This document shows positions 7,980 through 55,088 of a stretch of 64,000 nt of DNA, in pieces. The notes below the pieces were generated by a model. The model made no database searches. It worked only from the letters and a program-made list of their open reading frames with translations, and was not told the origin of the DNA. Numbering within the stretch: the first letter of the stretch is position 1; each line of letters opens with the position of its first letter. A program made the position numbers and the translations under genes. The stretch is from a virus. The stretch lies in IMG/VR virus record IMGVR_UViG_3300017728_002360; one strand, 5' to 3'.

Positions 7980-10900
7980 ATGGCAGTACCACAGTGGACA
8001 CAAAACTCAGGATATAAGTTAGGAACTCTACCCGAAAGAGTTACTACTTCTATCACACTACCTATTGCTCCAGGTTCAGCTAGTGGGTCAGGGTTTGACC
8101 CTGGTACTACAGAAATCAGCTTTCCTGCACAATCAAGAATATCAAACACAACTGTAATCAACATAGAGAAGACTTGGACACAGGGTGGTAATTCTGTTAC
8201 TTACACTTATCCAATAGCAATTAGAATTCCAACTATTACTGCACTTAACGATAAACGTATTCCTGTTGCAATACTATTGCACGGATCTGGTGGTAATGGT
8301 ATTAACGAGATAGGTAGTTGGCAAAACTACTTAGGTGATCATATTCTTGTTGCACCAACTGGTTACAACAACGAATGGAACGTTGCACACGAAAACACAA
8401 AAGCACCAGACATAGAATTTTTACAGGATTTAATTACACAACTTAAATTGTTTAGTAACGTAGATAATACTAAAATTAGAATGGTAGGTTTTAGTAACGG
8501 TGCGGCATTGGCAAACAGAGCATACGTGCAAATAGACGATACAGCATTAGATGTTATTTGTACAATAGGCACACAGTTCTTTGATCCAATGTTAAGAAAC
8601 AGCACATTTTATATTCCATCAGATCAAACAGGTATTACAACAGCAGAATACAATACTGCAAAGACTCCGTACCAACCAAGAAAGTTTTTAAACATACATG
8701 GTACAGCAGATGCAACTATTCCTTACACAGGTGGTTCACATAGCTTCGGTTATAGTTTCTTAGACGCTCAACAAAGTGTTTTTGAAATAGCAAAGTCACA
8801 AGGTTATACAGGCGGTGTTATTCCTGACGTAGGAGGAATATACTATGGTATAACAGGTGTATACTATTACTCATACCTTGCAGGACAAGTTACACACTAC
8901 AAGACACCAGCAGGACATGGTGTAGAAGATTATATGAAACAGATAATTGGTCTGTTCTTAGGTTACACACAGGAGTCGGCACCTAACATATTCTTAGAGC
9001 AAGGTTCTGTAACAGATATTAATTTAAACACAGACGTGATTACACTTATTAGTGGAGAACTTCCACCAGGTATGCGTTTGGTAGATAACAAGGTTGTAGG
9101 TACTCCATTTGAAGTAGCTAGAGATACAGTATTTGAATTTGTCCTAAGGGCACAAAACAGTGATGGTGTTAGAGATAGAACACTTAAGATAGAAGTACAA
9201 GGACCTGATGTTCCTATTTGGACAACAGCCGCAGGTAAGTTACCATTAGGACCTAATAACAGTTTTTATATATTAGATAGTAGTGTAGTAGACTTTCAGC
9301 TTTCAGCCATAGACGCAGACTTACCAACAGGGCAAAGTTTAGAATATTATATTGCTGACGGAGACGGAACACTACCTCCAGGAATACAATTAACCACAGA
9401 TGGTAAGTTGGTTGGTATTGTTGATCCTATATTAGCACTTGACGAAAGAAGTGGTAATGGATTTTACGACATGGCACAGTTTGATTCATATGCGTTTGAC
9501 TTTGGTATGAGAAGTGCAAACGGTTTTGAAAGTTATTACTACGATACGCAAGGATACGATTATGCTATTAAGACACAGAGTCCTAGAAAACTAAACAGAA
9601 CATACGAATTTACTGTTAGTGTTAGTGATGGCGATACTATAACAGAAAGAAAGTTTCAAATATTCTTAGTAGGTGATGATTTCCTACGTGCTGATAATAC
9701 TATCATGCAAATAGGTACAGGAATATTTACTGCGGATAATACTTACATAAGAGTACCTATGTGGTTAACTCCTGCGGACTTAGGTTTCAAAAGAGCAAAC
9801 AACTACGTAACTATTTTCTTAGATGTGTTTGATCCTAACGCACTTGTAGGAGAATTAAGATACGTATTAAGAGCAAATAACCCAGATGGTACAACAAGCA
9901 CAATACCACCAGGCATGGCACTAGATGTTACAACAGGTGAGATAGCTGGTCGTGTACCTTATATGCCTGCGGTTACTAAAGAATACAAATTTACAATTTC
10001 AGCTCAAAGATTTATAGATCAAAGTTTATATGCTGAAAAAGAAAAAACATTTACAGTAAAAGTATTAGGTGAAGTTGAAAGTACAATTACTTGGAATACT
10101 GCGGAGGCACTTGGTAGCATCAATGCAAACTTTATTAGTACGTTTGCCGTTAGTGCCACAACAACTGTAACTGACACAGCATTACTATATGATGTAACAG
10201 CAGGAAGTTTACCACCAGGATTGATACTTAACCATAATGGTGAAATTGTTGGTAAGGTAAGACAGTTTGCATCAGGAACCGATTTAGGACTAACAACTAT
10301 TGATAACAATAATTTTAGTATGGACGGCGGTACAACTACTACTGATAGAAAATTTAGTTTCACAGTAAGAGCTAGAGATAGATTTGGATTTAGTGCAACT
10401 ACTAGACAATTCAATATCGTTGTTAGTGATCCAGACAACATTACATACAGTAACCTCTACGTAAAACCCCTTCTTAAAAGCACACAGAGGTCTGCATACA
10501 GCAACTTCATTGGTGACCCTAACGTGTTTACACCCGGATCAATTTATAGACCAAACGATGCAGAATTTGGTTTACAAAAAGAAGTTAAGATGCTTGTATA
10601 TTCTGGATTGGAAACAAAAGAGATTAGAAACTATATCGCGGCAACTAGATTAAACCATAAACGAAAAAGATTTAAAATGGGTACAATTAAAACTGCCACT
10701 GCTAAAAAGACAGGAACCAATACGTCTGTATACGAAGTAGTGTATGTTGAAGTAATAGATCCAAGTGATATAAACAGTGGTACATTAAAAGTAAGAGCAA
10801 AGGATACTATTAGAAGTGATAAGAAGATTACTGTTGATAGTGTTGAATATGAAACAAGTGATGATGCATCTAAGGAAGGTGCAGGATTGGCTGTCTTTAC

Positions 10901-40964: not shown

Positions 40965-41161
40965 AGTACAAAGCAAAGAGTAATATACTAAAGAAAGGTA
41001 ACGATAGTATTTCCTTTAGTGTAAACAGACGTAAGAAAGTTGCACACATAGGTTATTATTATGAATACGATAAACACAAAGAAGATGTCATTTGTAGTCT
41101 ACCGGACGCAGATGATAGATATGAAAGTGCCATCAAGGCAGGATATAAGGTAGCATTTTGA
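40961..41161 (+). CDS. Hypothetical protein
   Basis: 66 aa, overlaps both neighbours. Confidence 0.5.
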   Translation: MKYKAKSNILKKGNDSISFSVNRRKKVAHIGYYYEYDKHKEDVICSLPDADDRYESAIKAGYKVAF

Positions 41162-41889
41162 AAATATTATTAACAGGAAGTAAGGGGTTTTTAGGTAGCC
41201 ACCTTGTCAAAAAATTGACGGCTCATCAGGTACATTGTATCGATAGAGCTGATGGCAAAGACTTACTTACCTGTGATTTAAACTATGACGTTGATCTAGT
41301 AATACATCTAGCAGGTGAAAGTGGTATAGCTAAAAGTTTAGACCACCCAGAACTGTATTGGGAAAACAATGTTATAGCAACAAAAAGATTATTTGATCAT
41401 TTCAAAGGCACAAAGATTATGTATGCAAGTTCTAGTACTGCAAAAGAACCAAACAGAAATCCTTATGCTATGACAAAATACACATTAGAAAAACTTGCAC
41501 CACATACAAGTACAGGACTACGTTTTTGCACTATATACAGTAACAGTCAGCAAAGGCCTAATATGTTCGTACCTCGTTTACTACGGAAAGAAATAGAGTA
41601 TATTCATACTAATCATAAACGAGACTTTATCCATATAGATGATGTTTGTAGTGCCATTACGTTTCTTATGAATCGTGAAGCACACGGTGTATATGATATT
41701 GGAACGGGTATAAGCACACCCCTAAAAGAGATTACGGATTTTTTCGATATAAACGTTGAAGAAAAGATCGGTGGTGAAAACGAAAGGTTATGCAATAAAG
41801 CTGACATTTCGAAATTAACAGACTTTGGTTGGAAACCTCAAATTAAATTATTTGAGTACTTAAAGTCGCAAAAGGACTTGACTTTATGA
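41158..41889 (+). CDS. NAD-dependent nucleotide-sugar epimerase/dehydratase
   Basis: LTGSKGFLG, HLAG, YAMTK, RDFIHIDDV. Confidence 0.85.
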   Translation: MKILLTGSKGFLGSHLVKKLTAHQVHCIDRADGKDLLTCDLNYDVDLVIHLAGESGIAKSLDHPELYWENNVIATKRLFDHFKGTKIMYASSSTAKEPNRNPYAMTKYTLEKLAPHTSTGLRFCTIYSNSQQRPNMFVPRLLRKEIEYIHTNHKRDFIHIDDVCSAITFLMNREAHGVYDIGTGISTPLKEITDFFDINVEEKIGGENERLCNKADISKLTDFGWKPQIKLFEYLKSQKDLTL

Positions 41890-41906
41890 CAAAAGTTATG
41901 TACAAT
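41878..41906 (+). promoter_or_regulatory. Sigma70-type promoter for clamp/TGT operon
   Basis: TTGACT-17nt-TACAAT. Confidence 0.7.
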
Positions 41907-41926: not shown

Positions 41927-42658
41927 ATGAAAGATATCTTACAAGACGTGGTTGCACATACACACTCGCTAGGTTTTCTTAATCTAGTAAAGGTTACGGG
42001 AGATGATGCAAATACACAAATCGAAAGTATGGCAGAAGACAGAAGTGTTATTCTAACTGCTGATACTAAAAATCCTGTGACAGAGTTCGCGGCAACCTTT
42101 GGTATGCCTAACTTAGATAAACTGGCTTTACACTTAAAGAATCCAGAGTATCAAAAGAACGCAAAACTTTCTGTAGAGAAAGCAACTAGGAACGGAGCAG
42201 AAGTTCCGACACACATTCACTTTGAGAATGAAGCAGGTGACTTCCAGAATGATTATAGATTTATGAATCAGGAGATCATTAATGAGAAACTTAAAAGTGT
42301 TAAGTTTAAAGGTGCTAGTTGGGAAGTAGAATTAGAGCCAACTATTGCAAGTATTACAAGAATGAAATTGCAAAGTGCGGCACACACAGAAGAAACTGTG
42401 TTTACTGTTAAAACTGAGAATAACAATCTTGTGTTTTACTTTGGTGATCATAGTACACACGCAGGATCATTTGATTTTGCAAAAGGTATTACAGGTGAAC
42501 TTAAACACGCATGGAGTTGGCCGGTAGCACAGGTACAATCAATTCTAGGACTAGATGGAAAACTTACAATGAAGATTTCCGATCAAGGTGCTATGCAAAT
42601 TAGTGTTGATAGCGGAATGGGTGTATACAATTACATTTTGCCTGCACAATCTAAGTAG
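41927..42658 (+). CDS. Probable DNA sliding clamp (gp45/PCNA-like)
   Basis: 243 aa, two-domain alpha/beta pattern, ends YNYILPAQ; polymerase and loader present. Confidence 0.55.
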   Translation: MKDILQDVVAHTHSLGFLNLVKVTGDDANTQIESMAEDRSVILTADTKNPVTEFAATFGMPNLDKLALHLKNPEYQKNAKLSVEKATRNGAEVPTHIHFENEAGDFQNDYRFMNQEIINEKLKSVKFKGASWEVELEPTIASITRMKLQSAAHTEETVFTVKTENNNLVFYFGDHSTHAGSFDFAKGITGELKHAWSWPVAQVQSILGLDGKLTMKISDQGAMQISVDSGMGVYNYILPAQSK

Positions 42659-42667
42659 GAGAAGTGA

Positions 42668-44212
42668 GTGAATACGAATCTAACTAATGCACAAAAAGAC
42701 TACGCAGTATTTCTCCCTGCCATTAGTGGGTTCTTTGCAACGTTTGTAGGCAAACAACGTTATGAGGAATATGTTGAGAAAAGTAGAATACCAAAGAACT
42801 TTCCGACTGAAGTAGAAAGCATGAACTGGCTTGAACCTAAAGCTAGTATGTTTCAATATCACTGGAGTTTATATTCGGCAGGACACGCCGAGTTAGATGT
42901 AAACAAAGACTCGCCTAAAGAGGATATGATCCGTAATAGAGATCGTAACAACAGTTGGTTGTTAGGAGACTCAGGTGGTTTCCAAATAGGTAAGGGTGTA
43001 TGGGAAGGTGACTGGAAAGATCCTAATTGTCCTAAAGCTAAAAAGAAACGTGAACAAGTCCTTACGTGGATGGACGCATATATGGATTATGGTATGATAC
43101 TTGATATTCCTGCCTGGGTGTCAAGAAGCCCTGCTGGTGCAAAAGCAACGGGTATTGACAACTATCAGGATGCCGTAAACGCCACTCGTATTAACAACGA
43201 TTACTTTATGAAAAACCGTAATGGTAATTGTAAGTTCCTAAATGTATTACAAGGTGAAAATCATACAGATGCTGAAGATTGGTATCAGCAAATGAAAGAC
43301 TACTGTGATCCTAAGAAATATACAGATCACTTTAATGGTTGGTCCATGGGTGGCCAGAATATGTGTGATATTCATTTAGTATTAAAAAGATTAGTAGCAC
43401 TACGTTTTGATGGTTTACTAGAAAAAGGAAAGCATGACTTTATGCACTTCCTAGGTACAAGTAAACTAGAGTGGGCTACTTTATTAACCGATGTACAACG
43501 AGCAGTTCGTAAATACCATAACGAAAACTATACTGTAACGTTTGATTGTGCAAGTCCTTTCTTAGCAACTGCTAACGGACAACTGTACATTCAAACAGAA
43601 ACAAATGATAGAACTAAATGGGTTTATAGAATGGTTCCAAGTATTGATGATAAGAAGTATTCAAGCGATACTAGAAACTTCCGTGACGCAGTATTGGCAG
43701 ATGGCATCTTTAAAAACTTTACAGACAGTCCGATAACAAAAGGATTAACTGTTAAAGATATTTGCATCTATGCTCCAGGAGACCTAAATAAGATAGGTAA
43801 AGAAGGTAAGACTAGTTGGGATAGCTTTAGTTATGCTATTCAGATGGGTCATAACGTATGGAGTCATATTAATGCAGTACAAGAAGCTAATAGATGCTAC
43901 GACAACGGTATATATCCTAGTATGCTAGTACAGGAGAAGTTCGATAGATTATACTTTAGAGATGTTATAGATGCCATTTTTGCAACTGATGACAGAGATA
44001 AAGCAAATCAAATTGTCGAAGAGTTCTCAAGATTCTGGATGTCAATCATTGGCACTAGAGGGGCAACTGGTAAGAAGACTGTAAATGCACAAACACATTT
44101 TAACGCATTGTTTGATGACGCAGATAGCACACCGGTTGTTGAAGAAACAAACGTTGAAGATTTACAGGAAAGTAAATTGGAGGAGTTAGAACATGAGCAA
44201 CAAAGCAAGTAA
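42668..44212 (+). CDS. TGT-fold transglycosylase (DpdA-like)
   Basis: GDSGGFQ, LDIP, VLQG, GWSMGG, HFLG, TFDCAS; no CxCxxC Zn site. Confidence 0.75.
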   Translation: MNTNLTNAQKDYAVFLPAISGFFATFVGKQRYEEYVEKSRIPKNFPTEVESMNWLEPKASMFQYHWSLYSAGHAELDVNKDSPKEDMIRNRDRNNSWLLGDSGGFQIGKGVWEGDWKDPNCPKAKKKREQVLTWMDAYMDYGMILDIPAWVSRSPAGAKATGIDNYQDAVNATRINNDYFMKNRNGNCKFLNVLQGENHTDAEDWYQQMKDYCDPKKYTDHFNGWSMGGQNMCDIHLVLKRLVALRFDGLLEKGKHDFMHFLGTSKLEWATLLTDVQRAVRKYHNENYTVTFDCASPFLATANGQLYIQTETNDRTKWVYRMVPSIDDKKYSSDTRNFRDAVLADGIFKNFTDSPITKGLTVKDICIYAPGDLNKIGKEGKTSWDSFSYAIQMGHNVWSHINAVQEANRCYDNGIYPSMLVQEKFDRLYFRDVIDAIFATDDRDKANQIVEEFSRFWMSIIGTRGATGKKTVNAQTHFNALFDDADSTPVVEETNVEDLQESKLEELEHEQQSK

Positions 44213-44378
44213 GAGTGAAAAGAAACTACAAGAAGAACACAAATGGTATGACAAGATCACAGGATCACTTACGAAGGAACGTAAGTTTGATAGGTCTTGG
44301 CAAACAGAAGAGCTTTTAAAAAGAACTAAAAAAATTAAATTAGCAATCAAAGATAAGATAGAAAATACTAAAAAATGA
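44193..44378 (+). CDS. Small basic coiled-coil protein
   Basis: 61 aa, SD GGAGG. Confidence 0.5.
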   Translation: MSNKASKSEKKLQEEHKWYDKITGSLTKERKFDRSWQTEELLKRTKKIKLAIKDKIENTKK

Positions 44379-44959
44379 ACGCAACTGCACTATTTTCAAC
44401 TTTATTATTAGAGGAACATCTTGATTTAGATAACGAGTCTGTTAAACAGGCTTGTTATGATATCCAACAAGACAATCCACATAATGAACAAGAAGGTGGT
44501 TGGCAGAGCGATTGGCTTTTAGATGATGATAGATTTAACAGTCTTAAACACGCAGTCGATGATATGGCTAAGAAAGTGCAAGAAGAATACTATAATCTTA
44601 ATTGTACTATAGAAAGAAAAGCTGAATGGATAAACATTAACTATCCGCAAGGTGCAGAAACTAATATCAATCAAGTTCATATGCACGATAGAAATGTTTT
44701 AAGTTTTGTTTACTATGTACAAGCAGATAATGATTGTGGTAACCTAACTTTGTTTGCACCACATCAGCTATATGATTATGCAGTTCCGTATAGATATATT
44801 AAACAACCTAATGAATGGAATAGCACTAGGTTTAGAATACAACCACAAGCAGGCAAGTTGGTTTGTTTTCCAAGTTACTTGTTACATAATGCTAATGCAA
44901 ACAAAAGCAAAAGAGATAGGATTAGTATTGCATTTAACGGAGACATAAATGAAACGTGA
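44375..44959 (+). CDS. 2OG-Fe(II) oxygenase-like protein (HxH type)
   Basis: GGWQS, HMH, LSFVYYV, FPSYLLH, RISIAFN. Confidence 0.8.
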   Translation: MNATALFSTLLLEEHLDLDNESVKQACYDIQQDNPHNEQEGGWQSDWLLDDDRFNSLKHAVDDMAKKVQEEYYNLNCTIERKAEWININYPQGAETNINQVHMHDRNVLSFVYYVQADNDCGNLTLFAPHQLYDYAVPYRYIKQPNEWNSTRFRIQPQAGKLVCFPSYLLHNANANKSKRDRISIAFNGDINET

Positions 44960-45503
44960 TTACACAGACGGCGAACAAGATAACGTAACGTTGTTTACTG
45001 GTGTTGAAGTAGAACATACTCCTGCATACGGACAAAGGACTTTGTTTGTAGTAGGAATACATAATCCAATTGACTTGATGCAAAAAGCAAGAGAACAAGA
45101 CTGTACACACATTTACTTAGGTGCTAATCAAAGTTTTAATCCTGATCCAAAGAATACAGATAACATAGAAGACTGGCATGATATGATTAGTGTTCTTTTA
45201 GACGAGAATTGGTTAGTTACACTAGACTATGATGTTAAGTATCATGAACTTGTATTAGATAACTTACACGAATCTAGTCAACCATTTTCTACAGTGAACA
45301 GTAATTTTATTCCGCAGATCAGTGTTAAGATTCCAAACATATCTGAATTAAGCTATAATGCTTGTATTAAGATTGACGACACTGACTTTAACCATTCGAA
45401 CCCAGGTGTATGGGTTCATCAAGTACACGACTTAATGGATCGTTCAAAATTTACAGATTGGACACAATATACCAAAGACAAACCAATAAAAGAGGTTGAT
45501 TAA
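44949..45503 (+). CDS. Unknown protein within the deazaguanine cluster
   Basis: FTGVEVEHTPAYG, HIYLGANQSF, KIDDTDF.HSNPGVW. Confidence 0.65.
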   Translation: MKRDYTDGEQDNVTLFTGVEVEHTPAYGQRTLFVVGIHNPIDLMQKAREQDCTHIYLGANQSFNPDPKNTDNIEDWHDMISVLLDENWLVTLDYDVKYHELVLDNLHESSQPFSTVNSNFIPQISVKIPNISELSYNACIKIDDTDFNHSNPGVWVHQVHDLMDRSKFTDWTQYTKDKPIKEVD

Positions 45504-45981
45504 TACTATGGATGATGTTACAATAAAAGAACTTAAACATTTGTCTACAGACGAGTTTATTAGGCAAAAATACAAAGAGGAAGGCAAAGCAAAGACTATG
45601 GATAATGCAAAGAGAATGATTTGGGTTACTTTTAGAAAAGAAGGTATTCACAAATATCCTGCGGCACTTGACGATCCTAAACTTGCAACAGGCGACGAGT
45701 ATGATGTTTCATTTTTAGGCTACCCACACAGACATATTTTTCATTTTAAAGTTGCTATTGAAGTATTCCACGATGACAGAGATATTGAATTTATTCAGTT
45801 CAAACGTTGGTTGGAAAAAATGTATAGCGAAAAGACTTTAGAACTTGATTATAAATCTTGCGAAATGATCAGTGATGATTTATGGGCTAAGATTAATGAA
45901 AAGTATCCAGGAAGAGAAGTTCACATTGACGTAAGTGAAGATGGAGAGAATGGTGCTCACATCGTATACGCAAAATACTAG
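45496..45981 (+). CDS. QueD-paralogue T-fold protein (DpdL-like)
   Basis: EGIH, LGYPHRHIF (LxxxHRHxF rather than QueD CxxxHGH), SCE, VSEDGENGA. Confidence 0.65.
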   Translation: MINTMDDVTIKELKHLSTDEFIRQKYKEEGKAKTMDNAKRMIWVTFRKEGIHKYPAALDDPKLATGDEYDVSFLGYPHRHIFHFKVAIEVFHDDRDIEFIQFKRWLEKMYSEKTLELDYKSCEMISDDLWAKINEKYPGREVHIDVSEDGENGAHIVYAKY

Positions 45982-45994
45982 AGGAGATATTGAC

Positions 45995-46210
45995 GTGTCA
46001 TATTTTGCTAAGAACCCCGAAGTCGTAAAAATCTTTGACGACTTAGACAAGTTTCGTGACTTTTGTCGTTTCGAAGGTTACAGATTTAATGAAAAAGATC
46101 TGTATAGTGAAAAGGCTAGAGCTTATCAGGCTTTTTTAGATCCTGTAAAAGCTCGTAAAGAAAGACGTGAGAAGAAACAAGCACGTTTTAAGAAAAGGAG
46201 ATATAATTGA
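45995..46210 (+). CDS. Small basic protein
   Basis: SD GAGGAG, GTG start. Confidence 0.55.
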   Translation: MSYFAKNPEVVKIFDDLDKFRDFCRFEGYRFNEKDLYSEKARAYQAFLDPVKARKERREKKQARFKKRRYN

Positions 46211-47271
46211 TATATATTGTAGATATTGAAGCAGTTGATACACGTTACACAAAGCAGTGGAAGGAATATCTTCCAAAGCAATTAAAACGTGCTACCAACA
46301 AAGAAGTTCAAGTAATTAACGGAGGTGACACTCCACAGGCAACAACACCTGGTGCTTTCTTAAACTTTGGCGGAACAAATGTCTACAAGAGTAAGCAGTT
46401 AGAAATTATAGGGGAAATGTTCTGTGCAGGACAAGTTAAGGACGGCGATTATTTTCTCTATACCGATGCCTGGAATCCTACAGTTATTCAACTACGGTAT
46501 ATGGCAGAACTATTGGGTGTTGACATTCGCATTGGTGGTTTGTGGCACGCAGGTAGTTATGATCCACAAGACTTTTTAGGTAGACTTATAGGTGACAAAC
46601 CTTGGGTTAGAAATGCAGAACGTTCTATGTTTGAATGTTATGATAACAACTTCTTTGCAAGTGACTTTCATATAGATATGTTTGTAGAAGCATTTTGGGG
46701 AGTAGCTAAACAATTAAACAATGGTAAGGTACAACGTGTAGGTTGGCCTATGGAATACTTACGTAACAGTTTAGATAGTTATAGAGGTATGCCTAAGGAA
46801 AATATTATACTGTTTCCGCATAGGATTGCTCCTGAGAAACAACCTGAAATATTTAGAGATTTAAGAACACACTTACCAGACTGTGAGCTTATTATATGTC
46901 AAGAACAAGAACTTTCTAAGATGGAATATCATAACTTGTTAGGTAGAGCAAAGCTAGTGTTTAGTGCTAACTTACAAGAAACATTAGGTATTAGTTGGTA
47001 TGAAGGTGCTATAGTAGACACACTACCAATGGTTCCAGATAGATTAAGTTACAGTGAAATGGCACTAGATGAATTTAAGTATCCAAGTCGATGGACTACA
47101 GATTTTAAAGAATACGAAGCAAATAGAGAACAACTTGTTAAAAGAATAAATGACTACATGATAAATTATGAAACTTATCTTCCAGCTTTACAAAAACAAG
47201 TTAAAAAATTACAAAACGACTTTTTTGCAGGTACTGAACTTTATGGAGCAATAAGCAATGACAAAGACTAG
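46207..47271 (+). CDS. GT-B glycosyltransferase (GT4-like)
   Basis: FPHRIAPEKQP and QETLGISWYEG (E-x7-E). Confidence 0.75.
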   Translation: MIYIVDIEAVDTRYTKQWKEYLPKQLKRATNKEVQVINGGDTPQATTPGAFLNFGGTNVYKSKQLEIIGEMFCAGQVKDGDYFLYTDAWNPTVIQLRYMAELLGVDIRIGGLWHAGSYDPQDFLGRLIGDKPWVRNAERSMFECYDNNFFASDFHIDMFVEAFWGVAKQLNNGKVQRVGWPMEYLRNSLDSYRGMPKENIILFPHRIAPEKQPEIFRDLRTHLPDCELIICQEQELSKMEYHNLLGRAKLVFSANLQETLGISWYEGAIVDTLPMVPDRLSYSEMALDEFKYPSRWTTDFKEYEANREQLVKRINDYMINYETYLPALQKQVKKLQNDFFAGTELYGAISNDKD

Positions 47272-47689
47272 TGATGATAAAAAATATACTATTAACATCG
47301 GTAAAAGTACAGTATCAGATACGGTATCAGTAGTTCCTTCAGTAACATATACGGCAGGTTCAACTGTAGGCGGCATTAATACTGTTGGCATTGATGCAGA
47401 TGATATAACTTTTTCTGGTTGTAGCACAGGTATTGCAACACCGCAGTATACATACACATTCGATTCTACAGTTGATACGTTATCAGGAGTGAATGATACG
47501 GGTGGCGAGTTTTCAATTAACTTTGATGACTTAGAAAGCAGACCTGAAGTATGGCCTTCACAACACACTATTGAAGAAATGATCAAAGAATATCCTGCAT
47601 TGGCTTTGCAGTATCATAGATTTATAGAGCTTTACAATTTATGTAAAGACGATTACTACAGTGGTAAACAAAATGATGAACTTTTTTAA
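47258..47689 (+). CDS. Thr/Ser-rich hypothetical protein
   Basis: 143 aa; low-complexity N-part, EYPAL helical C-part. Confidence 0.55.
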   Translation: MTKTSDDKKYTINIGKSTVSDTVSVVPSVTYTAGSTVGGINTVGIDADDITFSGCSTGIATPQYTYTFDSTVDTLSGVNDTGGEFSINFDDLESRPEVWPSQHTIEEMIKEYPALALQYHRFIELYNLCKDDYYSGKQNDELF

Positions 47690-48155
47690 GGATAGAAAAA
47701 GAACAATATATGATCGAACAGGAACAGTACCATATCTAATTAGATGGTATATATTCCTTAAGGATCGTAAGAGCTTCCCGTTCAACATCACTTTACATAA
47801 AATACTAGTAAGTGATGAGGCAGTACTACATGACCATCCCTGGAGTTGGGGTACAATGATCCTAAAAGGTGGGTATTGGGAACACACGCCGTTAAGAGCC
47901 ATGGAAGGTCATGTAGTAGGTAGTACAAAAAAATGGTGGGGACCAGGTACTGTAAGATTTAGAAAAGCTGATGATTTGCATTAGCTAGAACTTGAGAAGG
48001 ACAAAGATGGTAACGAGATACCGTGTTGGAGTTTATTCTATATGGGTAAGAAATCCAAAGAATGGGGCTTTATGCGACACGTTAAGGACTTAGGTTATCG
48101 TTGGATACTTCATACAGATTATTTGAAAGATAAGAAAACAGATGAGACAGCCTAA
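47673..48155 (+). pseudogene. Cupin-fold protein interrupted by in-frame TAG (47982-47984)
   Basis: LHDHPW...GGYWE...DDLH*LELEK...WSLF.MG...EWGF; frame continues to TAA 48153-48155, overlapping next start. Confidence 0.7.
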
Positions 48156-49320
48156 AGTAACAGAAATGCTAGATGGAAGAATGTACATCTTTGATGATGC
48201 ATTTGAGCCACCTGAACTAAATGAACTTGTTCGTGATGTACAAAACTGGCCATACTTATATGGTGAAGTTGATGACGGTGATTTACCGCCAACAGGAATG
48301 AGTACAGGAGAATATACAGGTAGTAAAACATTTCATGCACTTTGGGAGTTCTGTGAAAAGTATGTACCACAAGTAAATGGTTGCATACTAAAAAGATCAC
48401 ACGCAAATATATTTGCTCCAAGAGAGCCTGCGTACTATCACGTAGACGATGAAAGTGATGAAGCATGGACTTTTATGTTTTATGCAAACAATAACTGGGA
48501 TATAAATGACGGTGGTGAAACAAAGTTTATTACCAACTTACAAAATAAAAAAGAAGGCTATGAAGGTACAGAGTATCCAGAGATAATTGCTATTCCGCCT
48601 ATTCCAGGTAGAATACTTCTTTGGAAAAGCAACGTATTACATACTGCAACACCTATGAGAAACACACATAGATTTACTCCTACGTTTAAATTTATTAAGT
48701 TCTTAGAAGAAATGCACGGCAAAGGTGAAGGTGGTATTGTTATGGGTAAGCAAGAAACTTATCCTTGGCATAAAGAATATGTTCCACCTATGCCTATTAC
48801 AACTGAATTACATAACATAGTAAACATTAATGTATATGAAACTAACTTGACTAACGTAGACGATAAACAAATAATAGATTGTGTTAGTAGACGTGTTACA
48901 AGGATTGATAATAATCCTGAGGACACACACTACGAAGATTTTGAGTTTCCAAACAATCCGTGTTGTTTACACTTTATGAGTGAAGTAGAAAAAGCAGTTA
49001 AGCAATACACAGATGAAGATTTAGAATTAACAGGAATCTGGACACACAAAACAGAACCAAATGGTAGTACTGCCTTTCATAGTCATACTAAAAGCAAATG
49101 GTCTTTTGTGTATTACCCAGCACACGTGGAAGGCCAAGGTAACTTACACTTCACAGTATTTGTAAATGATATGCCACGTTTCGAAAAAGAGATACAACCT
49201 AAGCCGGGTATGCTCTTAATATTTGATTCAAAGATTTCTCACTACACAGGGAAAAATGTAACAAACAGTGATAGGTATTCTATCAGTGGTAACTTTAATA
49301 TTAGGAGTAATAATGATTAA
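48142..49320 (+). CDS. Tandem double 2OG-Fe(II) oxygenase
   Basis: Domain 1 HVD...VLH...HRF; domain 2 HSH...ISH...RYSISGN. Confidence 0.75.
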   Translation: MRQPKVTEMLDGRMYIFDDAFEPPELNELVRDVQNWPYLYGEVDDGDLPPTGMSTGEYTGSKTFHALWEFCEKYVPQVNGCILKRSHANIFAPREPAYYHVDDESDEAWTFMFYANNNWDINDGGETKFITNLQNKKEGYEGTEYPEIIAIPPIPGRILLWKSNVLHTATPMRNTHRFTPTFKFIKFLEEMHGKGEGGIVMGKQETYPWHKEYVPPMPITTELHNIVNINVYETNLTNVDDKQIIDCVSRRVTRIDNNPEDTHYEDFEFPNNPCCLHFMSEVEKAVKQYTDEDLELTGIWTHKTEPNGSTAFHSHTKSKWSFVYYPAHVEGQGNLHFTVFVNDMPRFEKEIQPKPGMLLIFDSKISHYTGKNVTNSDRYSISGNFNIRSNND

Positions 49321-49855
49321 GAAAAAATATTATAGTTGGAAAGACGTGGAGAATATGTGTACAAGTATCGTAAGCGATATGTACAATGACTCTTGGAGAC
49401 CCGACTATATTGTAGGTATTACCAGAGGTGGTAATGTACCAGCAACTATTATTAGTAACATGACTGGCATACGTTGTGAGTCTATTAAGATTAGTCTACG
49501 TGATAACGAATCAGGTAGAGCAGGTGATAGTGTTGACTGGATGGCCGATGATGCTTTTGGTATTCTAGATGGCAAGGTTGCATCAGGTAGCCCAACTAGT
49601 AAGAAAATTTTAATCGTAGATGACATCAACGACACTGGTGCTACATTTAACTGGATTAAAAAAGATTGGGAGTCAAGACACAATGACCCAGACAAGTGGG
49701 CTAGGATATGGGGTGGCAATGTTAAATTTGCTACACTTACAGAAAACCTAGCTAGTAAGTTTGGATCTGTTTCTTACTTCTGTGACGAAGTTAACAAAGC
49801 TGAGGAAGACGTTTGGTTAGTTTATCCTTGGGAGAACGTGGGAAAGTATGATTAA
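49313..49855 (+). CDS. Type I purine phosphoribosyltransferase (Gpt-like)
   Basis: GITRGG, LIVDDINDTGAT, WLVYPWE. Confidence 0.85.
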   Translation: MIKKKYYSWKDVENMCTSIVSDMYNDSWRPDYIVGITRGGNVPATIISNMTGIRCESIKISLRDNESGRAGDSVDWMADDAFGILDGKVASGSPTSKKILIVDDINDTGATFNWIKKDWESRHNDPDKWARIWGGNVKFATLTENLASKFGSVSYFCDEVNKAEEDVWLVYPWENVGKYD

Positions 49856-50549: not shown

Positions 50550-50788
50550 CCGATAATATAGTTAAATTTCCTGATATAAAAGATAGGGTACACGTATTAA
50601 ACTTTAAAGTGCCAGCGGTTATCAGTATGCACAAAAAAGCAGATAGCGATATAGCATTGGAAATAAGACGTTTGAATGAACACGAAGGTATAGGACAAGC
50701 CTGGGTACCTGCAAAGAATATAACAGAAGCTAAAAGGAAACTACACGATATGATCAAAGTTACTGAATGGATTGACATAGATGCGTGA
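50546..50788 (+). CDS. Hypothetical protein
   Basis: 80 aa, overlaps neighbours. Confidence 0.5.
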   Translation: MTDNIVKFPDIKDRVHVLNFKVPAVISMHKKADSDIALEIRRLNEHEGIGQAWVPAKNITEAKRKLHDMIKVTEWIDIDA

Positions 50789-51176
50789 AGACTTAATGGT
50801 TCAACAACAGGTAGAAAACTTATGGCAACACTTTGTAGGTGTTATATGTTTAAATCAAACAGGTAGAATACAAGTTAAAAGAGTACTACCAGAGTTTTTT
50901 GATAGATGGCCAACGCCAGAGAAGTTTCTTAGAAGCAGAAAAGCAACTGTTATTAACGTAATAAAAAGTTTAGGATTTTATAATAGACGTGAGAACGCAA
51001 TTAGAAAGATGACAAAAGACTTTCTAACTTGGGATAAGGTAGATGCTACAAAGTTATATGGCATCGGCAAATACGGATCAGATAGTTACGAGTTATTCTA
51101 TAACAAACGTGTACCTGAGAACGTAGGTGATCATGAATTAAAAAGATACATTAAGGAAGAGTTTTATGGAGTTTAG
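50781..51176 (+). CDS. HhH-GPD DNA glycosylase, MBD4-catalytic-domain-like
   Basis: ICLNQT, LGFYNRR, LYGIGKYGSDSYELF, DHEL. Confidence 0.75.
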   Translation: MREDLMVQQQVENLWQHFVGVICLNQTGRIQVKRVLPEFFDRWPTPEKFLRSRKATVINVIKSLGFYNRRENAIRKMTKDFLTWDKVDATKLYGIGKYGSDSYELFYNKRVPENVGDHELKRYIKEEFYGV

Positions 51177-51588
51177 TCAAATACCTTGGAAAGACGTGTT
51201 AGTAGACACTAGACAATTTACTGTGTTTAAGGACAAGTATCCGGTTACAGAAGGACATATTCTTTTTGTACCTAAAGTAGAAGACTGGGATCATTTGACA
51301 GAATGTTTTAAGGCCGCTTACAAATGGGGCTATGATTGGGTTGAACGTGGATACTGTGATGCTTTTAACATAGGACAGAACGTAGGCAAAGAAGCAGGAC
51401 AAAGTGTAATGTGGCCACACGTACATTTGATTCCTAGGCGTGAAGGTGATATGGCAGATCCTAAAGGAGGTGTGCGAGGAGTGTTGCCACATAAGCAAAA
51501 ATATATAGATAAGGATCTAAATATACGTGAAGGTAAATTTACAACAGAAGAAATTATTGAAGCACAAGAGAGGATCTTAAATAAATGA
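51166..51588 (+). CDS. HIT-family nucleotide hydrolase
   Basis: DKYPVTEGH, AGQSVMWPHVHLIPR. Confidence 0.85.
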   Translation: MEFSQIPWKDVLVDTRQFTVFKDKYPVTEGHILFVPKVEDWDHLTECFKAAYKWGYDWVERGYCDAFNIGQNVGKEAGQSVMWPHVHLIPRREGDMADPKGGVRGVLPHKQKYIDKDLNIREGKFTTEEIIEAQERILNK

Positions 51589-52742: not shown

Positions 52743-53429
52743 TTGAAGAAAAGTGAAGAAATAATACAGAGGTTACAAGACTCAGGAGATAGATTCTGGG
52801 CTGGTGACAACATATCACAGCATCTACAACCGGGCGACAAAGATGCACTAATCGAAGAACTTACACCAAAGTTTGAAGAAGTGTTAGACAGCTTGGTTAT
52901 AGATCGTTTTAATGATCCTAACAGTATGGACACTGGTAGACGTCTTGCAAAGATGTATATCAATGAACTTATGCAAGGACGTTATAACCCAATGCCTAAT
53001 GCAACTGCATTTCCGAACCATGTAGAAGATGGTTATAAGGGTATGCTTGTTGTAAGAAGCGAAATTAAAAGTATGTGTTCACATCATCACCAACCAGTGA
53101 GTGGTGTTGCATACATTGGTATTATTGCCGCGGAAACACTCATTGGACTTTCTAAGTATACACGTATTGCTCAATGGTGTGCAAGAAGAGGTACACTACA
53201 AGAAGAACTTAATAATGTTATTGCTAATGAGATTGGTAAGGCAACTAACAGTCCTAACGTAGGTGTTTACATTCAAGCAACACATGGTTGTTGTGAGAAC
53301 AGAGGTATTATGGCAAGAAGTAGTTTAACACAAACTACAGTCTTACGTGGTGCATTTGAAAAAGACATGGGTACTAAAAAAGAGTTTATGGATAACATCA
53401 AATTACAACAGGAGTTTGCACGTGATTAG
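52743..53429 (+). CDS. folE: GTP cyclohydrolase I
   Basis: SMCSHH, GLSK, LQE, HGCCENRG. Confidence 0.9.
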   Translation: MKKSEEIIQRLQDSGDRFWAGDNISQHLQPGDKDALIEELTPKFEEVLDSLVIDRFNDPNSMDTGRRLAKMYINELMQGRYNPMPNATAFPNHVEDGYKGMLVVRSEIKSMCSHHHQPVSGVAYIGIIAAETLIGLSKYTRIAQWCARRGTLQEELNNVIANEIGKATNSPNVGVYIQATHGCCENRGIMARSSLTQTTVLRGAFEKDMGTKKEFMDNIKLQQEFARD

Positions 53430-54191: not shown

Positions 54192-55088
54192 ATGGCAGAG
54201 AAGAAATATTATTACAGTGAAATATTTCATTCGATACAGGGTGAAGGACACTATACAGGTGTGCCTACTGCTTGGATACGTTTCTTCTTGTGTAACTTAC
54301 AATGTAGTGGGTTTGGACAAGTAGATCCTACAAATCCTGACACATATGATCTTCCGTTTTTAGATTATGATGTAAGCCAAGTAAAAAGAGTTGAAGACTT
54401 ACCTGTTTGGGAAAAAGGTTGTGATTCTAGTTATACTTGGGCTAAGAAGTATAAACACTTGATGGGTCAAGAAACTCCTGATTCTTTAGCAAACAAGATT
54501 GTTGATATACTAAAGACAGAGTCGAACCCAGAAGGCAAGTTCTTACATCCTATGAGTAAGCAAAGACAACACTTATGCTTTACAGGTGGTGAGCCTTTAA
54601 TGATTACTGGACAACAGGCAAGTGTTGGTATATATGAAGAATTATTAAAACAAGGTAATTTACCAGAGTCAATGACTTTTGAAACTAACGGTACACAAAA
54701 GTTAAGAGAGCCTTTTAAAGAATGGGCTACAGGAATTGATCAAGAAGTATTCTTTAGTTGTAGTCCTAAACTGTTTACAGTATCAGGTGAACAAACTAAG
54801 AAAGCTATTATTCCAGAAGTAGTTGGAGAATATTATCAAGTTTCTAACAAAGGACAATTAAAGTTTGTTGTAGGTAGTGAACAAAGACAATGGGACGAGA
54901 TGGACGAAGCTATAGAGAAATTTAGATCAGCAGGTTGTAATTGGCCTGTATGGATCATGCCCGTTGGGGCTAGAGAAGAAGAGCAAACTGCGACAGCAGG
55001 TGACGTTGCTAAACTGGCATTTCAAAGAGGTTATAACGTGGCGGCAAGAGTACACGTATACTTGTTTGGTAATGCGATAGGCACTTAG
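54192..55088 (+). CDS. queE: 7-carboxy-7-deazaguanine synthase-like radical SAM enzyme
   Basis: EIFHSIQGEG, CNLQC...GCDS, FTGGEP, ETNG, SPK, RVH. Confidence 0.85.
   Translation: MAEKKYYYSEIFHSIQGEGHYTGVPTAWIRFFLCNLQCSGFGQVDPTNPDTYDLPFLDYDVSQVKRVEDLPVWEKGCDSSYTWAKKYKHLMGQETPDSLANKIVDILKTESNPEGKFLHPMSKQRQHLCFTGGEPLMITGQQASVGIYEELLKQGNLPESMTFETNGTQKLREPFKEWATGIDQEVFFSCSPKLFTVSGEQTKKAIIPEVVGEYYQVSNKGQLKFVVGSEQRQWDEMDEAIEKFRSAGCNWPVWIMPVGAREEEQTATAGDVAKLAFQRGYNVAARVHVYLFGNAIGT

Follow-up and report, generated by a model that had tools for sequence, protein, structure and literature searches.

The locus described here lies in a stretch of 64,000 nucleotides (nt; hereafter the window) of the IMG/VR virus record IMGVR_UViG_3300017728_002360, and centres on a cluster of four genes predicted to tailor a deazaguanine base for DNA. 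The source contig is from an uncultured marine giant phage, with the genes on one strand and a GC content of 36%. The four genes encode a 184-amino-acid (aa) protein (U184), a homologue of DpdL, a small basic protein (b91) and a glycosyltransferase (GT). The window is part of a phage genome, and related contigs of up to 257 kb, one of them estimated to be 72% complete, were also searched. The family-B DNA polymerase in the window is ~50% identical to the polymerases of the Sinorhizobium jumbo phage Phosso and the Pseudomonas jumbo phage PA5oct.

All four open reading frames (ORFs) were confirmed on the + strand: U184 at 44949-45503, DpdL (161 aa, TTG start) at 45496-45981, b91 (91 aa, isoelectric point (pI) of 9.8, GTG start uncertain) at 45935-46210, and the GT (354 aa) at 46207-47271. 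The genes overlap one another by 8, 47 and 4 nt, and the flanking genes by 11 and 14 nt. The tightly packed run described in an earlier note on this DNA is therefore real, and the four genes are translationally coupled. The first gene of the unit (41927..42658, +) encodes a clamp-like protein, probably a sliding clamp, which is 33-35% identical to the products of the same-position genes of Phosso and PA5oct; the Phosso counterpart carries a sliding clamp annotation. A single transcription unit is inferred from the gene overlaps, from the absence of terminator-like sites in any intergenic gap of the unit, and from the position of the best promoter-like site (41878-41906), just 5' of the clamp-like gene. 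For the marine comparison, 80 IMG/VR loci with a GT 68-82% identical to that of the window were used. The ORFs are not chance features, as the GT and U184 have >6,700 homologue clusters each and the order DpdA-U184-DpdL-b91-GT recurs in 73-80 of these 80 related viral contigs. No Pfam or NCBIfam match above threshold was found for U184, DpdL, b91 or the GT, and DpdL alone had a PHROG match. Megablast with the region as query found no match among phage genomes, and single-sequence searches of the PDB with the GT, DpdL, U184 and the DpdA protein described below returned nothing usable.

On its predicted structure, the 354-aa protein is a GT-B, GT4-like, retaining-type glycosyltransferase that uses nucleoside diphosphate (NDP) sugars and forms a divergent family of its own. 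An alignment of 61 sequences from diverse relatives was the basis of both the AlphaFold2 model and the conservation figures. The model (pLDDT of 95.2, pTM of 0.92) shows two Rossmann-like domains in a GT-B fold. Foldseek matched it to BshA, MshA, glycogen synthase, PglA and the B. anthracis GT4 enzyme BA1558, with E-values down to 4e-11 and TM-scores up to 0.67, and the best viral structural match was the homologue in the Acidovorax phage ACP17. Structure prediction and Foldseek thus upheld the GT-B assignment made in the earlier note. The likeness to the T4 alpha- and beta-glucosyltransferases (AGT and BGT) that it had raised was not borne out: these enzymes were absent from the 50 best Foldseek matches and gave no sequence match, and the best folds were GT4 small-molecule enzymes instead.

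The GT family profile matched the C-terminal GT1 domains of AmGGT (8xsg, E-value of 3e-5) and WlaC in the PDB, and the motif residues of the window protein align with the motifs of these domains. In the EX7E motif (E258-x7-E266), E258 is present in >90% of the 61 sequences and E266 is invariant. The donor-phosphate residues R206 and K211 are present in >90% of the sequences, and H114 is invariant or nearly so. The conservation of EX7E, R206 and K211 argues for a working NDP-sugar transferase. Conserved aromatic residues (Y14, W18, F51, W89, Y98 and W133) line its acceptor pocket. The PF00534 (Glycos_transf_1) model reached an E-value of 0.075 and 13 bits against a cut-off of 26.4, which is below the gathering score; the domain is carried by 29% of the members of one related ESM Atlas cluster, and the Atlas labels the clusters of the GT 'glycosyl transferase family 1 domain'. 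At 90% identity the family falls into at least 8,000 clusters, and at 50% identity it has 1,149 representatives. The 354-aa protein had also been considered as a candidate DpdA; this was dropped, given its GT fold and the fact that the 514-aa protein matches TGT.

By sequence, the 161-aa protein is a homologue of DpdL, an enzyme whose activity is a proposed one. The motif LGYPHRHIF, at residues 74-82, is the sole [x]xxxH[GR]HxF match among the + strand ORFs of at least 60 aa in the window. DpdL is a QueD paralogue in which the QueD signature CxxxHGH becomes LxxxHRHxF (Cui, Hutinet et al., NAR 2023, PMC10516641), and it was picked in the same study as the candidate decarboxylase of 7-carboxy-7-deazaguanine (CDG) in phiST, a phage containing 2'-deoxy-7-deazaguanosine (dDG). 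The earlier note had named both the motif as a mark of DpdL and the proposed decarboxylation by a QueD paralogue, and it agrees with this publication on each point. The window protein is 31.7% identical to phiST gp040 (CGPG_00067), with a tblastn E-value of 1e-9 against the whole phage collection and a blastp E-value of 8e-16; the gp040 gene sits between MazG and ATPase genes, in agreement with PMC10516641. The window DpdL is 58-72% identical to the products of small genes adjoining QueE in ACP17 and adjoining the GT in PA5oct and Phosso.

The DpdL core spans approximately residues 40-160. Residues H52, H78, H80, H92, E98, E123 and E148 are invariant in the DpdL alignment, and H78, R79, H80 and F82 are invariant in 10 DpdL relatives; the metal-binding histidines are kept, and Leu replaces the catalytic Cys. 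Pfam PF01242 did not match the window DpdL. Comparison with three phage QueDs by hhalign gave a moderate match (probability of 47%, E-value of 2e-4) over the C-terminal 45 columns, and a search of the PDB with the DpdL profile returned only PH0634, weakly (E-value of 0.58). For the relationship of phiST DpdL to QueD, an HHpred value of 99.9% was reported (PMC10516641).

The marine DpdLs have a charged N-terminal extension of ~40 residues that is absent from the DpdLs of cultured phages (~120-127 aa); in the window, this extension (45496-45610, +) hinges on the TTG start. Longer proteins with DpdL annotated at their C-terminal end occur in the Vibrio phage Bakedbeans (383 aa; locus L096, 5254-6405) and the Chryseobacterium phage MA9V-3 (293 aa; locus L098, 5431-6312). 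These fusions were uninformative: no pathway protein matches their N-terminal parts, and that of MA9V-3 resembles a homing-endonuclease module.

The 514-aa protein encoded at 42668..44212 (+) is, from motif and profile comparisons, a divergent TGT/DpdA, that is, a DpdA-like TGT-fold DNA transglycosylase. It contains the motifs LLGDSGGFQ and TVTFDCASP, and DSGG.Q and D293 are invariant in the family, which includes a 424-aa protein of ACP17 and a protein of the Xanthomonas phage BUDD annotated as 'queuine tRNA-ribosyltransferase'. The family profile aligned with E. coli Tgt by hhalign with a probability of 91.9% and an E-value of 7e-7, and the alignment covers the catalytic FDC. PF01702 (TGT) matched none of 14 family members and nothing in five phage records, phiST included, and a profile search of the PDB returned nothing. 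The DpdA3 of phiST was found only with HHpred (PMC10516641).

Other genes for deazaguanine synthesis lie downstream. FolE, GTP cyclohydrolase I, is encoded at 52743..53429 (+; PF01227, E-value of 2e-37; phrog_2197), and a QueE-like radical S-adenosylmethionine (SAM) protein of the CDG synthase type at 54192..55088 (+; phrog_2076, E-value of 4e-52; NCBIfam QueE models below their cut-offs). The latter is 36% identical to the PA5oct '7-carboxy-7-deazaguanine synthase'. No canonical QueD was found in the 64-kb window. A PF01242 QueD with the motif HCHLLHGY (CxxxHGY) is encoded tens of kb away from the cassette in each of two related marine contigs, and two such proteins are encoded by PA5oct. As canonical QueD is encoded elsewhere in these relatives, DpdL is not simply the QueD of the phage. 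No QueC was found above the cut-off. The QueE of the window, its marine relatives and the PA5oct homologue share CNLQCSGF, a CxxxC motif without the usual third Cys; ~39 residues beyond it lies a conserved Cys-Asp (KGCDSSY), which may represent a radical-SAM cluster motif split by a long insert. The QueE proteins of ACP17 and Phosso retain an ordinary CxxxCxxC.

The linkage of the GT to DpdL was conserved across a wide range of phages. In the 80 marine loci, the order clamp-DpdA-U184-DpdL-b91-GT is nearly fixed, with the GT counted in 80, DpdL in 79, b91 in 75, U184 in 74, DpdA in 73 and the phosphoribosyltransferase (PRTase) gene discussed below in 70; FolE (53/80) and QueE (49/80) were also found, both counts being limited by contig ends. 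The GT lies beside DpdL in 79 of the 80. The PA5oct-like phages (Wroclawvirus), ACP17, Phosso, BUDD, X1 (Xanthomonas), BCSR5 (Burkholderia) and the cyanophage BUCT-ZZ01 (Synechococcus) resemble the window in having the GT, DpdL (38-72% identical), FolE and QueE. Their GTs are 25-52% identical to that of the window by tblastn, except in BUCT-ZZ01, where the GT was detected only by the family profile (E-value of 9e-39). A DpdA of the window family was confirmed in the five phages inspected (PA5oct, ACP17, BUDD, BUCT-ZZ01 and Phosso), and the GT and DpdL are adjacent or one gene apart in the cassettes of all five. These phages differ from the window in their gene orders, in lacking U184 and b91 or carrying them elsewhere, and, for BUCT-ZZ01, in having a second GT. 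The orders are DpdA-GT-DpdL...QueE in the PA5oct-like phages, QueD-FolE-U184-DpdA-GT-DpdL-QueE in ACP17, DpdL-GT-x-FolE...QueE in Phosso, FolE...GT-DpdA-DpdL-QueE in BUDD, and QueE-PRTase-x-QueD-FolE-GT2-DpdA-DpdL-GT in BUCT-ZZ01.

More distant homologues showed the same association. For all three metagenomic GT homologues (29-33% identity), a homologue of DpdL (E-values of 1e-21 to 1e-26) was encoded next to the GT or with a single gene between them. The co-occurrence that the earlier note had named as a check was therefore present in every context examined, with the GT accompanied by DpdA, QueE, FolE and, above all, DpdL. DpdL was found without a GT of the window family in the phiST group, Ahp1, RHph_I1_18, Bakedbeans, D479 and MA9V-3. 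No distant or cultured case of the GT without DpdL was seen among those examined, and one of the 80 marine loci had no DpdL counted. Since DpdL occurs without the GT and the GT was not seen without DpdL in these cases, the GT would represent a tailoring step downstream of DpdL. A structure prediction of the GT and DpdL as a complex scored 0.00, which has no bearing either way.

Three arrangements among the distant cassettes were also noted. In the T4-like cyanophage BUCT-ZZ01, DpdA-DpdL is flanked by two GTs, one of 447 aa with the Pfam domain Glyco_trans_1_4 (locus L095, 5364-6707) and one of 388 aa of the window family (8355-9521); the pair may point to a disaccharide, or to a choice of two sugars. 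In one distant cassette, DpdL and the GT are separated by a radical SAM/SPASM protein of 343 aa (loci L092, 935-1966, and L093, 1525-2556), which the QueE profile does not recognise; FolE follows a few genes on, and a UDG-family gene lies upstream. A Tad3-family gene (anti-Thoeris, PF25185; locus L088, 5845-6465) is present next to a gene for a clamp-loader-like ATPase, ~4 kb 3' of a DpdL-GT-DpdA cassette that is also distant.

U184 is an acidic, enzyme-like protein with 6,789 homologous clusters. Its alignment has 34 invariant columns, many of them acidic, including E20, E22, D93, D95, D143 and D144, and its model (pLDDT of 85.5) shows an alpha/beta partial barrel. No Pfam, PHROG or PDB sequence match was found, the profile search of the PDB was also empty, and Foldseek returned nothing at E <= 1e-3; of the two fold checks suggested previously, that on the GT was informative (GT-B) and that on U184 was not. 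The best VIA-align Z-score for U184 was 5.9, and three QueE structures scored 5.2-5.7 over 120-128 aligned residues, all within the noise range of the tool. The ESM Atlas models nearest to U184 outside its own family are QueE clusters (TM-score of 0.55), and several of its motifs line up with QueE motifs by eye. The identification of U184 as a degenerate QueE was rejected, given an hhalign probability of 0.3%, the presence of two Cys only, the lack of CxxxCxxC, and fold scores within noise; the modelled likeness to QueE is a weak lead and not a finding. Atlas feature matches to glycoside-hydrolase barrels (0.83-0.87) are a lead only.

U184 is a lineage-restricted accessory. Homologues were identified in ACP17, beside DpdA, and elsewhere in the genomes of the PA5oct-like phages, with no others in the phage collection; the U184 profile found none in Phosso, BUDD, BUCT-ZZ01 or three distant metagenomic cassette loci. 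The b91 homologue occupies the same position in the 75 marine loci that have it, and the 4-nt overlap couples b91 to the start of the GT. No b91 homologue was found in 11 loci searched, the distant GT-bearing cassettes included.

Further genes surround the cassette at varying frequencies in the 80 related loci. Just upstream in 49 of them, and at 41158..41889 (+) in the window, is a gene for a 243-aa extended-SDR NAD-dependent epimerase/dehydratase (PF01370, E-value of 1e-25; PF16363; phrog_540, nucleotide-sugar epimerase), which possibly makes the NDP-sugar donor. A 194-aa 2-oxoglutarate (2OG)-Fe(II) oxygenase is encoded at 44375..44959 (+; PF13759, E-value of 3e-20). The earlier note had envisaged hydroxylation by an oxygenase followed by glycosylation. 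This was not supported, as just 13 of the 80 related loci have the oxygenase, and the ACP17, PA5oct, Phosso, BUDD and BUCT-ZZ01 cassettes all lack it; it is an accessory or passenger outside the core.

The xanthine/guanine-type PRTase-like protein (195 aa) is encoded at 49268..49855 (+; PF00156, E-value of 7e-10). Its best NCBIfam match is xanthine PRTase, with an E-value of 4e-11 that is below the cut-off, and a homologue in BUCT-ZZ01 (locus L095, 3435-3908; E-value of 8e-13) adjoins QueE. PRTases make deazapurine nucleotides in toyocamycin and tubercidin biosynthesis. The window protein could make a deazapurine nucleotide, or could recycle the guanine released by DpdA towards GTP for FolE. 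Also between the GT and FolE are genes for a cupin-like 107-aa protein with the phrog label 'cysteine dioxygenase' (47661-47984, +; 50/80 loci), a double 2OG-Fe(II) oxygenase (48142-49320, +; 16/80), a short HhH-GPD glycosylase-like protein (50781-51176, +; 21/80) and a HinT-like HIT protein (51166-51588, +; 51/80), all four being variable accessories.

From the gene identities, folds, motifs and conserved linkage, we infer a route with its acceptor, sugar, order of steps and product in DNA. The probability is put at roughly 0.5 that a 7-deazaguanine base whose synthesis depends on DpdL receives a sugar, before or after insertion by DpdA, and that the cassette is the tailoring core of a deazaguanine DNA modification. 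FolE, together with a QueD encoded elsewhere and QueE, would produce CDG; preQ0 would not be made, as no QueC was found. DpdL would then convert a pathway intermediate, in the published proposal by decarboxylation of CDG to 7-deazaguanine (DG), and the 514-aa DpdA would exchange guanine in the phage DNA for the new base. The GT would place the sugar of an NDP-sugar on the DpdL-dependent base, with the free base and the base in DNA about equally likely as acceptor. The predicted product is virion DNA with a sugar-bearing 7-deazapurine that blocks restriction, and U184 and b91 may act as lineage-restricted helpers.

Several points weigh against this interpretation. The decarboxylase activity of DpdL is proposed only, and no dDG was formed in E. 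coli when dpdL was expressed with dpdA, from either phiST or ACP17 (PMC10516641). The chemistry is a prediction for every phage with the cassette. The GT has no Pfam or NCBIfam match above threshold. Its family is acidic (median pI of 5.6) and its best folds act on small molecules, neither of which favours a reaction directly on DNA. A weak point is the acceptor atom, because 7-deazaguanine has no hydroxyl for O-glycosylation and the nearby hydroxylase is not conserved. It is possible that DpdL in phages with the cassette makes something other than DG, that the linkage is N-, C- or acyl-glycosidic, or that the handle comes from a gene of unrecognised function, such as that for U184 or for the cupin-like protein of 107 aa. 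The likeness to BshA and MshA does not exclude a DNA substrate, since the phage GTs that modify 5-hydroxymethylcytosine (5hmC) in DNA were recruited from small-molecule and lipopolysaccharide GT families (Pyle et al. 2023 preprint).

The available data on PA5oct, a carrier of DpdA-GT-DpdL, fit glycosylation of a DpdL-dependent base. The DNA of this phage resists five G-containing restriction enzymes and has a modified G. A deazaguanine system was pointed out in PA5oct by Iyer et al. 2021, and END nucleases, the proposed sensors of diverse DNA hypermodifications, respond to this phage. The restriction resistance and the upstream epimerase/dehydratase are consistent with the model without proving it. 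Tentatively, and at a little short of even odds, the virion DNA of the marine jumbo-phage lineage, PA5oct, ACP17, Phosso, BUDD and BUCT-ZZ01 may carry a glycosylated 7-deazaguanine derivative, with the sugar perhaps attached to the free base, which would then be inserted by the unusually large DpdA. By analogy, the insertion of a bulky glycosylated base by DpdA may resemble the insertion of queuine by eukaryotic TGT. If true, the addition of the sugar before insertion may be the reason that no product was obtained in E. coli from dpdL and dpdA by themselves.

An unlikely alternative, but the best surviving, is that the DNA contains plain dDG, as in phiST, and that the GT targets another base, a protein or an envelope glycan and travels in a shared early/middle operon for DNA metabolism. 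The Cellulophaga phage phiST (DpdL/DpdA3, PMC10516641) resembles the window in having FolE, QueD, QueE, an LxxxHRHxF DpdL and a TGT-like transglycosylase, and no QueC, and it makes dDG with DpdL and without the GT; DG also offers no obvious acceptor hydroxyl. It differs from the window in lacking a GT of this family, U184 and the PRTase. No similarity could be detected between its 259-aa DpdA3 and the 514-aa DpdA, and the final base of the window phage is predicted to differ from plain dDG. In marine phages and in those of Pseudomonas, Acidovorax, Sinorhizobium, Xanthomonas and Synechococcus, the adjacency of the GT and DpdL has also outlasted divergence to 29-33% identity and the repeated shuffling of gene order (GT-DpdL, DpdL-GT, GT-DpdA-DpdL and DpdL-rSAM-GT), with no examined case of the GT lacking DpdL, which argues against an unrelated target.

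It is improbable, though suggested by analogy with pteridine glycosyltransferases (PGTs), that DpdL and the GT act on a soluble pterin or deazapurine to make a glycosylated small molecule (a cofactor mimic or signal) that never enters DNA. The closest parallel is the Chlorobium tepidum enzyme CtPGT, a GT1- and AviGT4-like protein of ~356 aa that glycosylates tetrahydrobiopterin and matches the window GT in size and superfamily, the only respects in which the two were compared (PMC5683033). Its acceptor is, similarly, a GTP-derived heterocycle made by FolE and a T-fold enzyme, and the pteridine pathway of cyanobacteria and Chlorobium likewise consists of FolE, a PTPS-type T-fold enzyme and a GT4-like PGT; BshA and MshA, the best structural matches, also have small-molecule acceptors. 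However, CtPGT is a cellular enzyme that acts on the side-chain hydroxyl of tetrahydrobiopterin and is linked neither to QueE nor to a DNA transglycosylase, whereas both of these accompany the GT and DpdL in nearly every cassette. DpdL lacks the Cys needed for PTPS/QueD chemistry, and no sepiapterin-reductase-type gene was identified.

An equally improbable reading, in which the GT-like protein transfers no sugar to a base and serves as a scaffold or partner of DpdA or DpdL, or carries out a different reaction, either on CDG or on a deazapurine nucleotide that the PRTase supplies, would accommodate the lack of a GT domain match above threshold and the hint of nucleotide-level steps from the conserved purine-type PRTase and nearby HIT protein, but is disfavoured by E258, E266, R206, K211 and H114, which are invariant or nearly so in the 61 diverse GT members.

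Compared with known DNA GTs, the window protein shares with T4 AGT and BGT and the metavirome 5hmC GTs its origin in a phage, the GT-B fold and the use of NDP-sugars. The T4 and metavirome enzymes decorate a modified DNA base against nucleases. They act on hydroxymethyl or hydroxy pyrimidines, whereas the window GT is linked to genes for a purine (deazaguanine), with no hydroxymethylase linked. In a literature search of incomplete coverage, no glycosylated deazaguanine in DNA and no GT linked to DpdL or DpdA were found, in keeping with the earlier note, to which no characterised sugar transfer onto a deazaguanine in DNA was known. In the literature searched, DNA glycosylation concerns pyrimidines only (5hmC, 5-hydroxycytosine and base J), and the eight known 7-deazaguanine DNA bases are all non-glycosylated.

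The DpdL/DpdA pathway was already known; what is new here is the proposed extension of a deazaguanine DNA modification system by a dedicated GT. The tight association of such a GT with DpdL and DpdA leads to the prediction of a new DNA base class and, if true, no other DNA would have been known before to contain a purine analogue with a sugar. Members of the GT family are very abundant in ocean viromes and form thousands of clusters at 90% identity. The prediction is testable, as the cassette is present in the cultured phages PA5oct, ACP17, Phosso and BUCT-ZZ01. The cassette could also clarify the real role of DpdL, which is still a proposed one, and could supply enzymes for labelling DNA at guanine positions.

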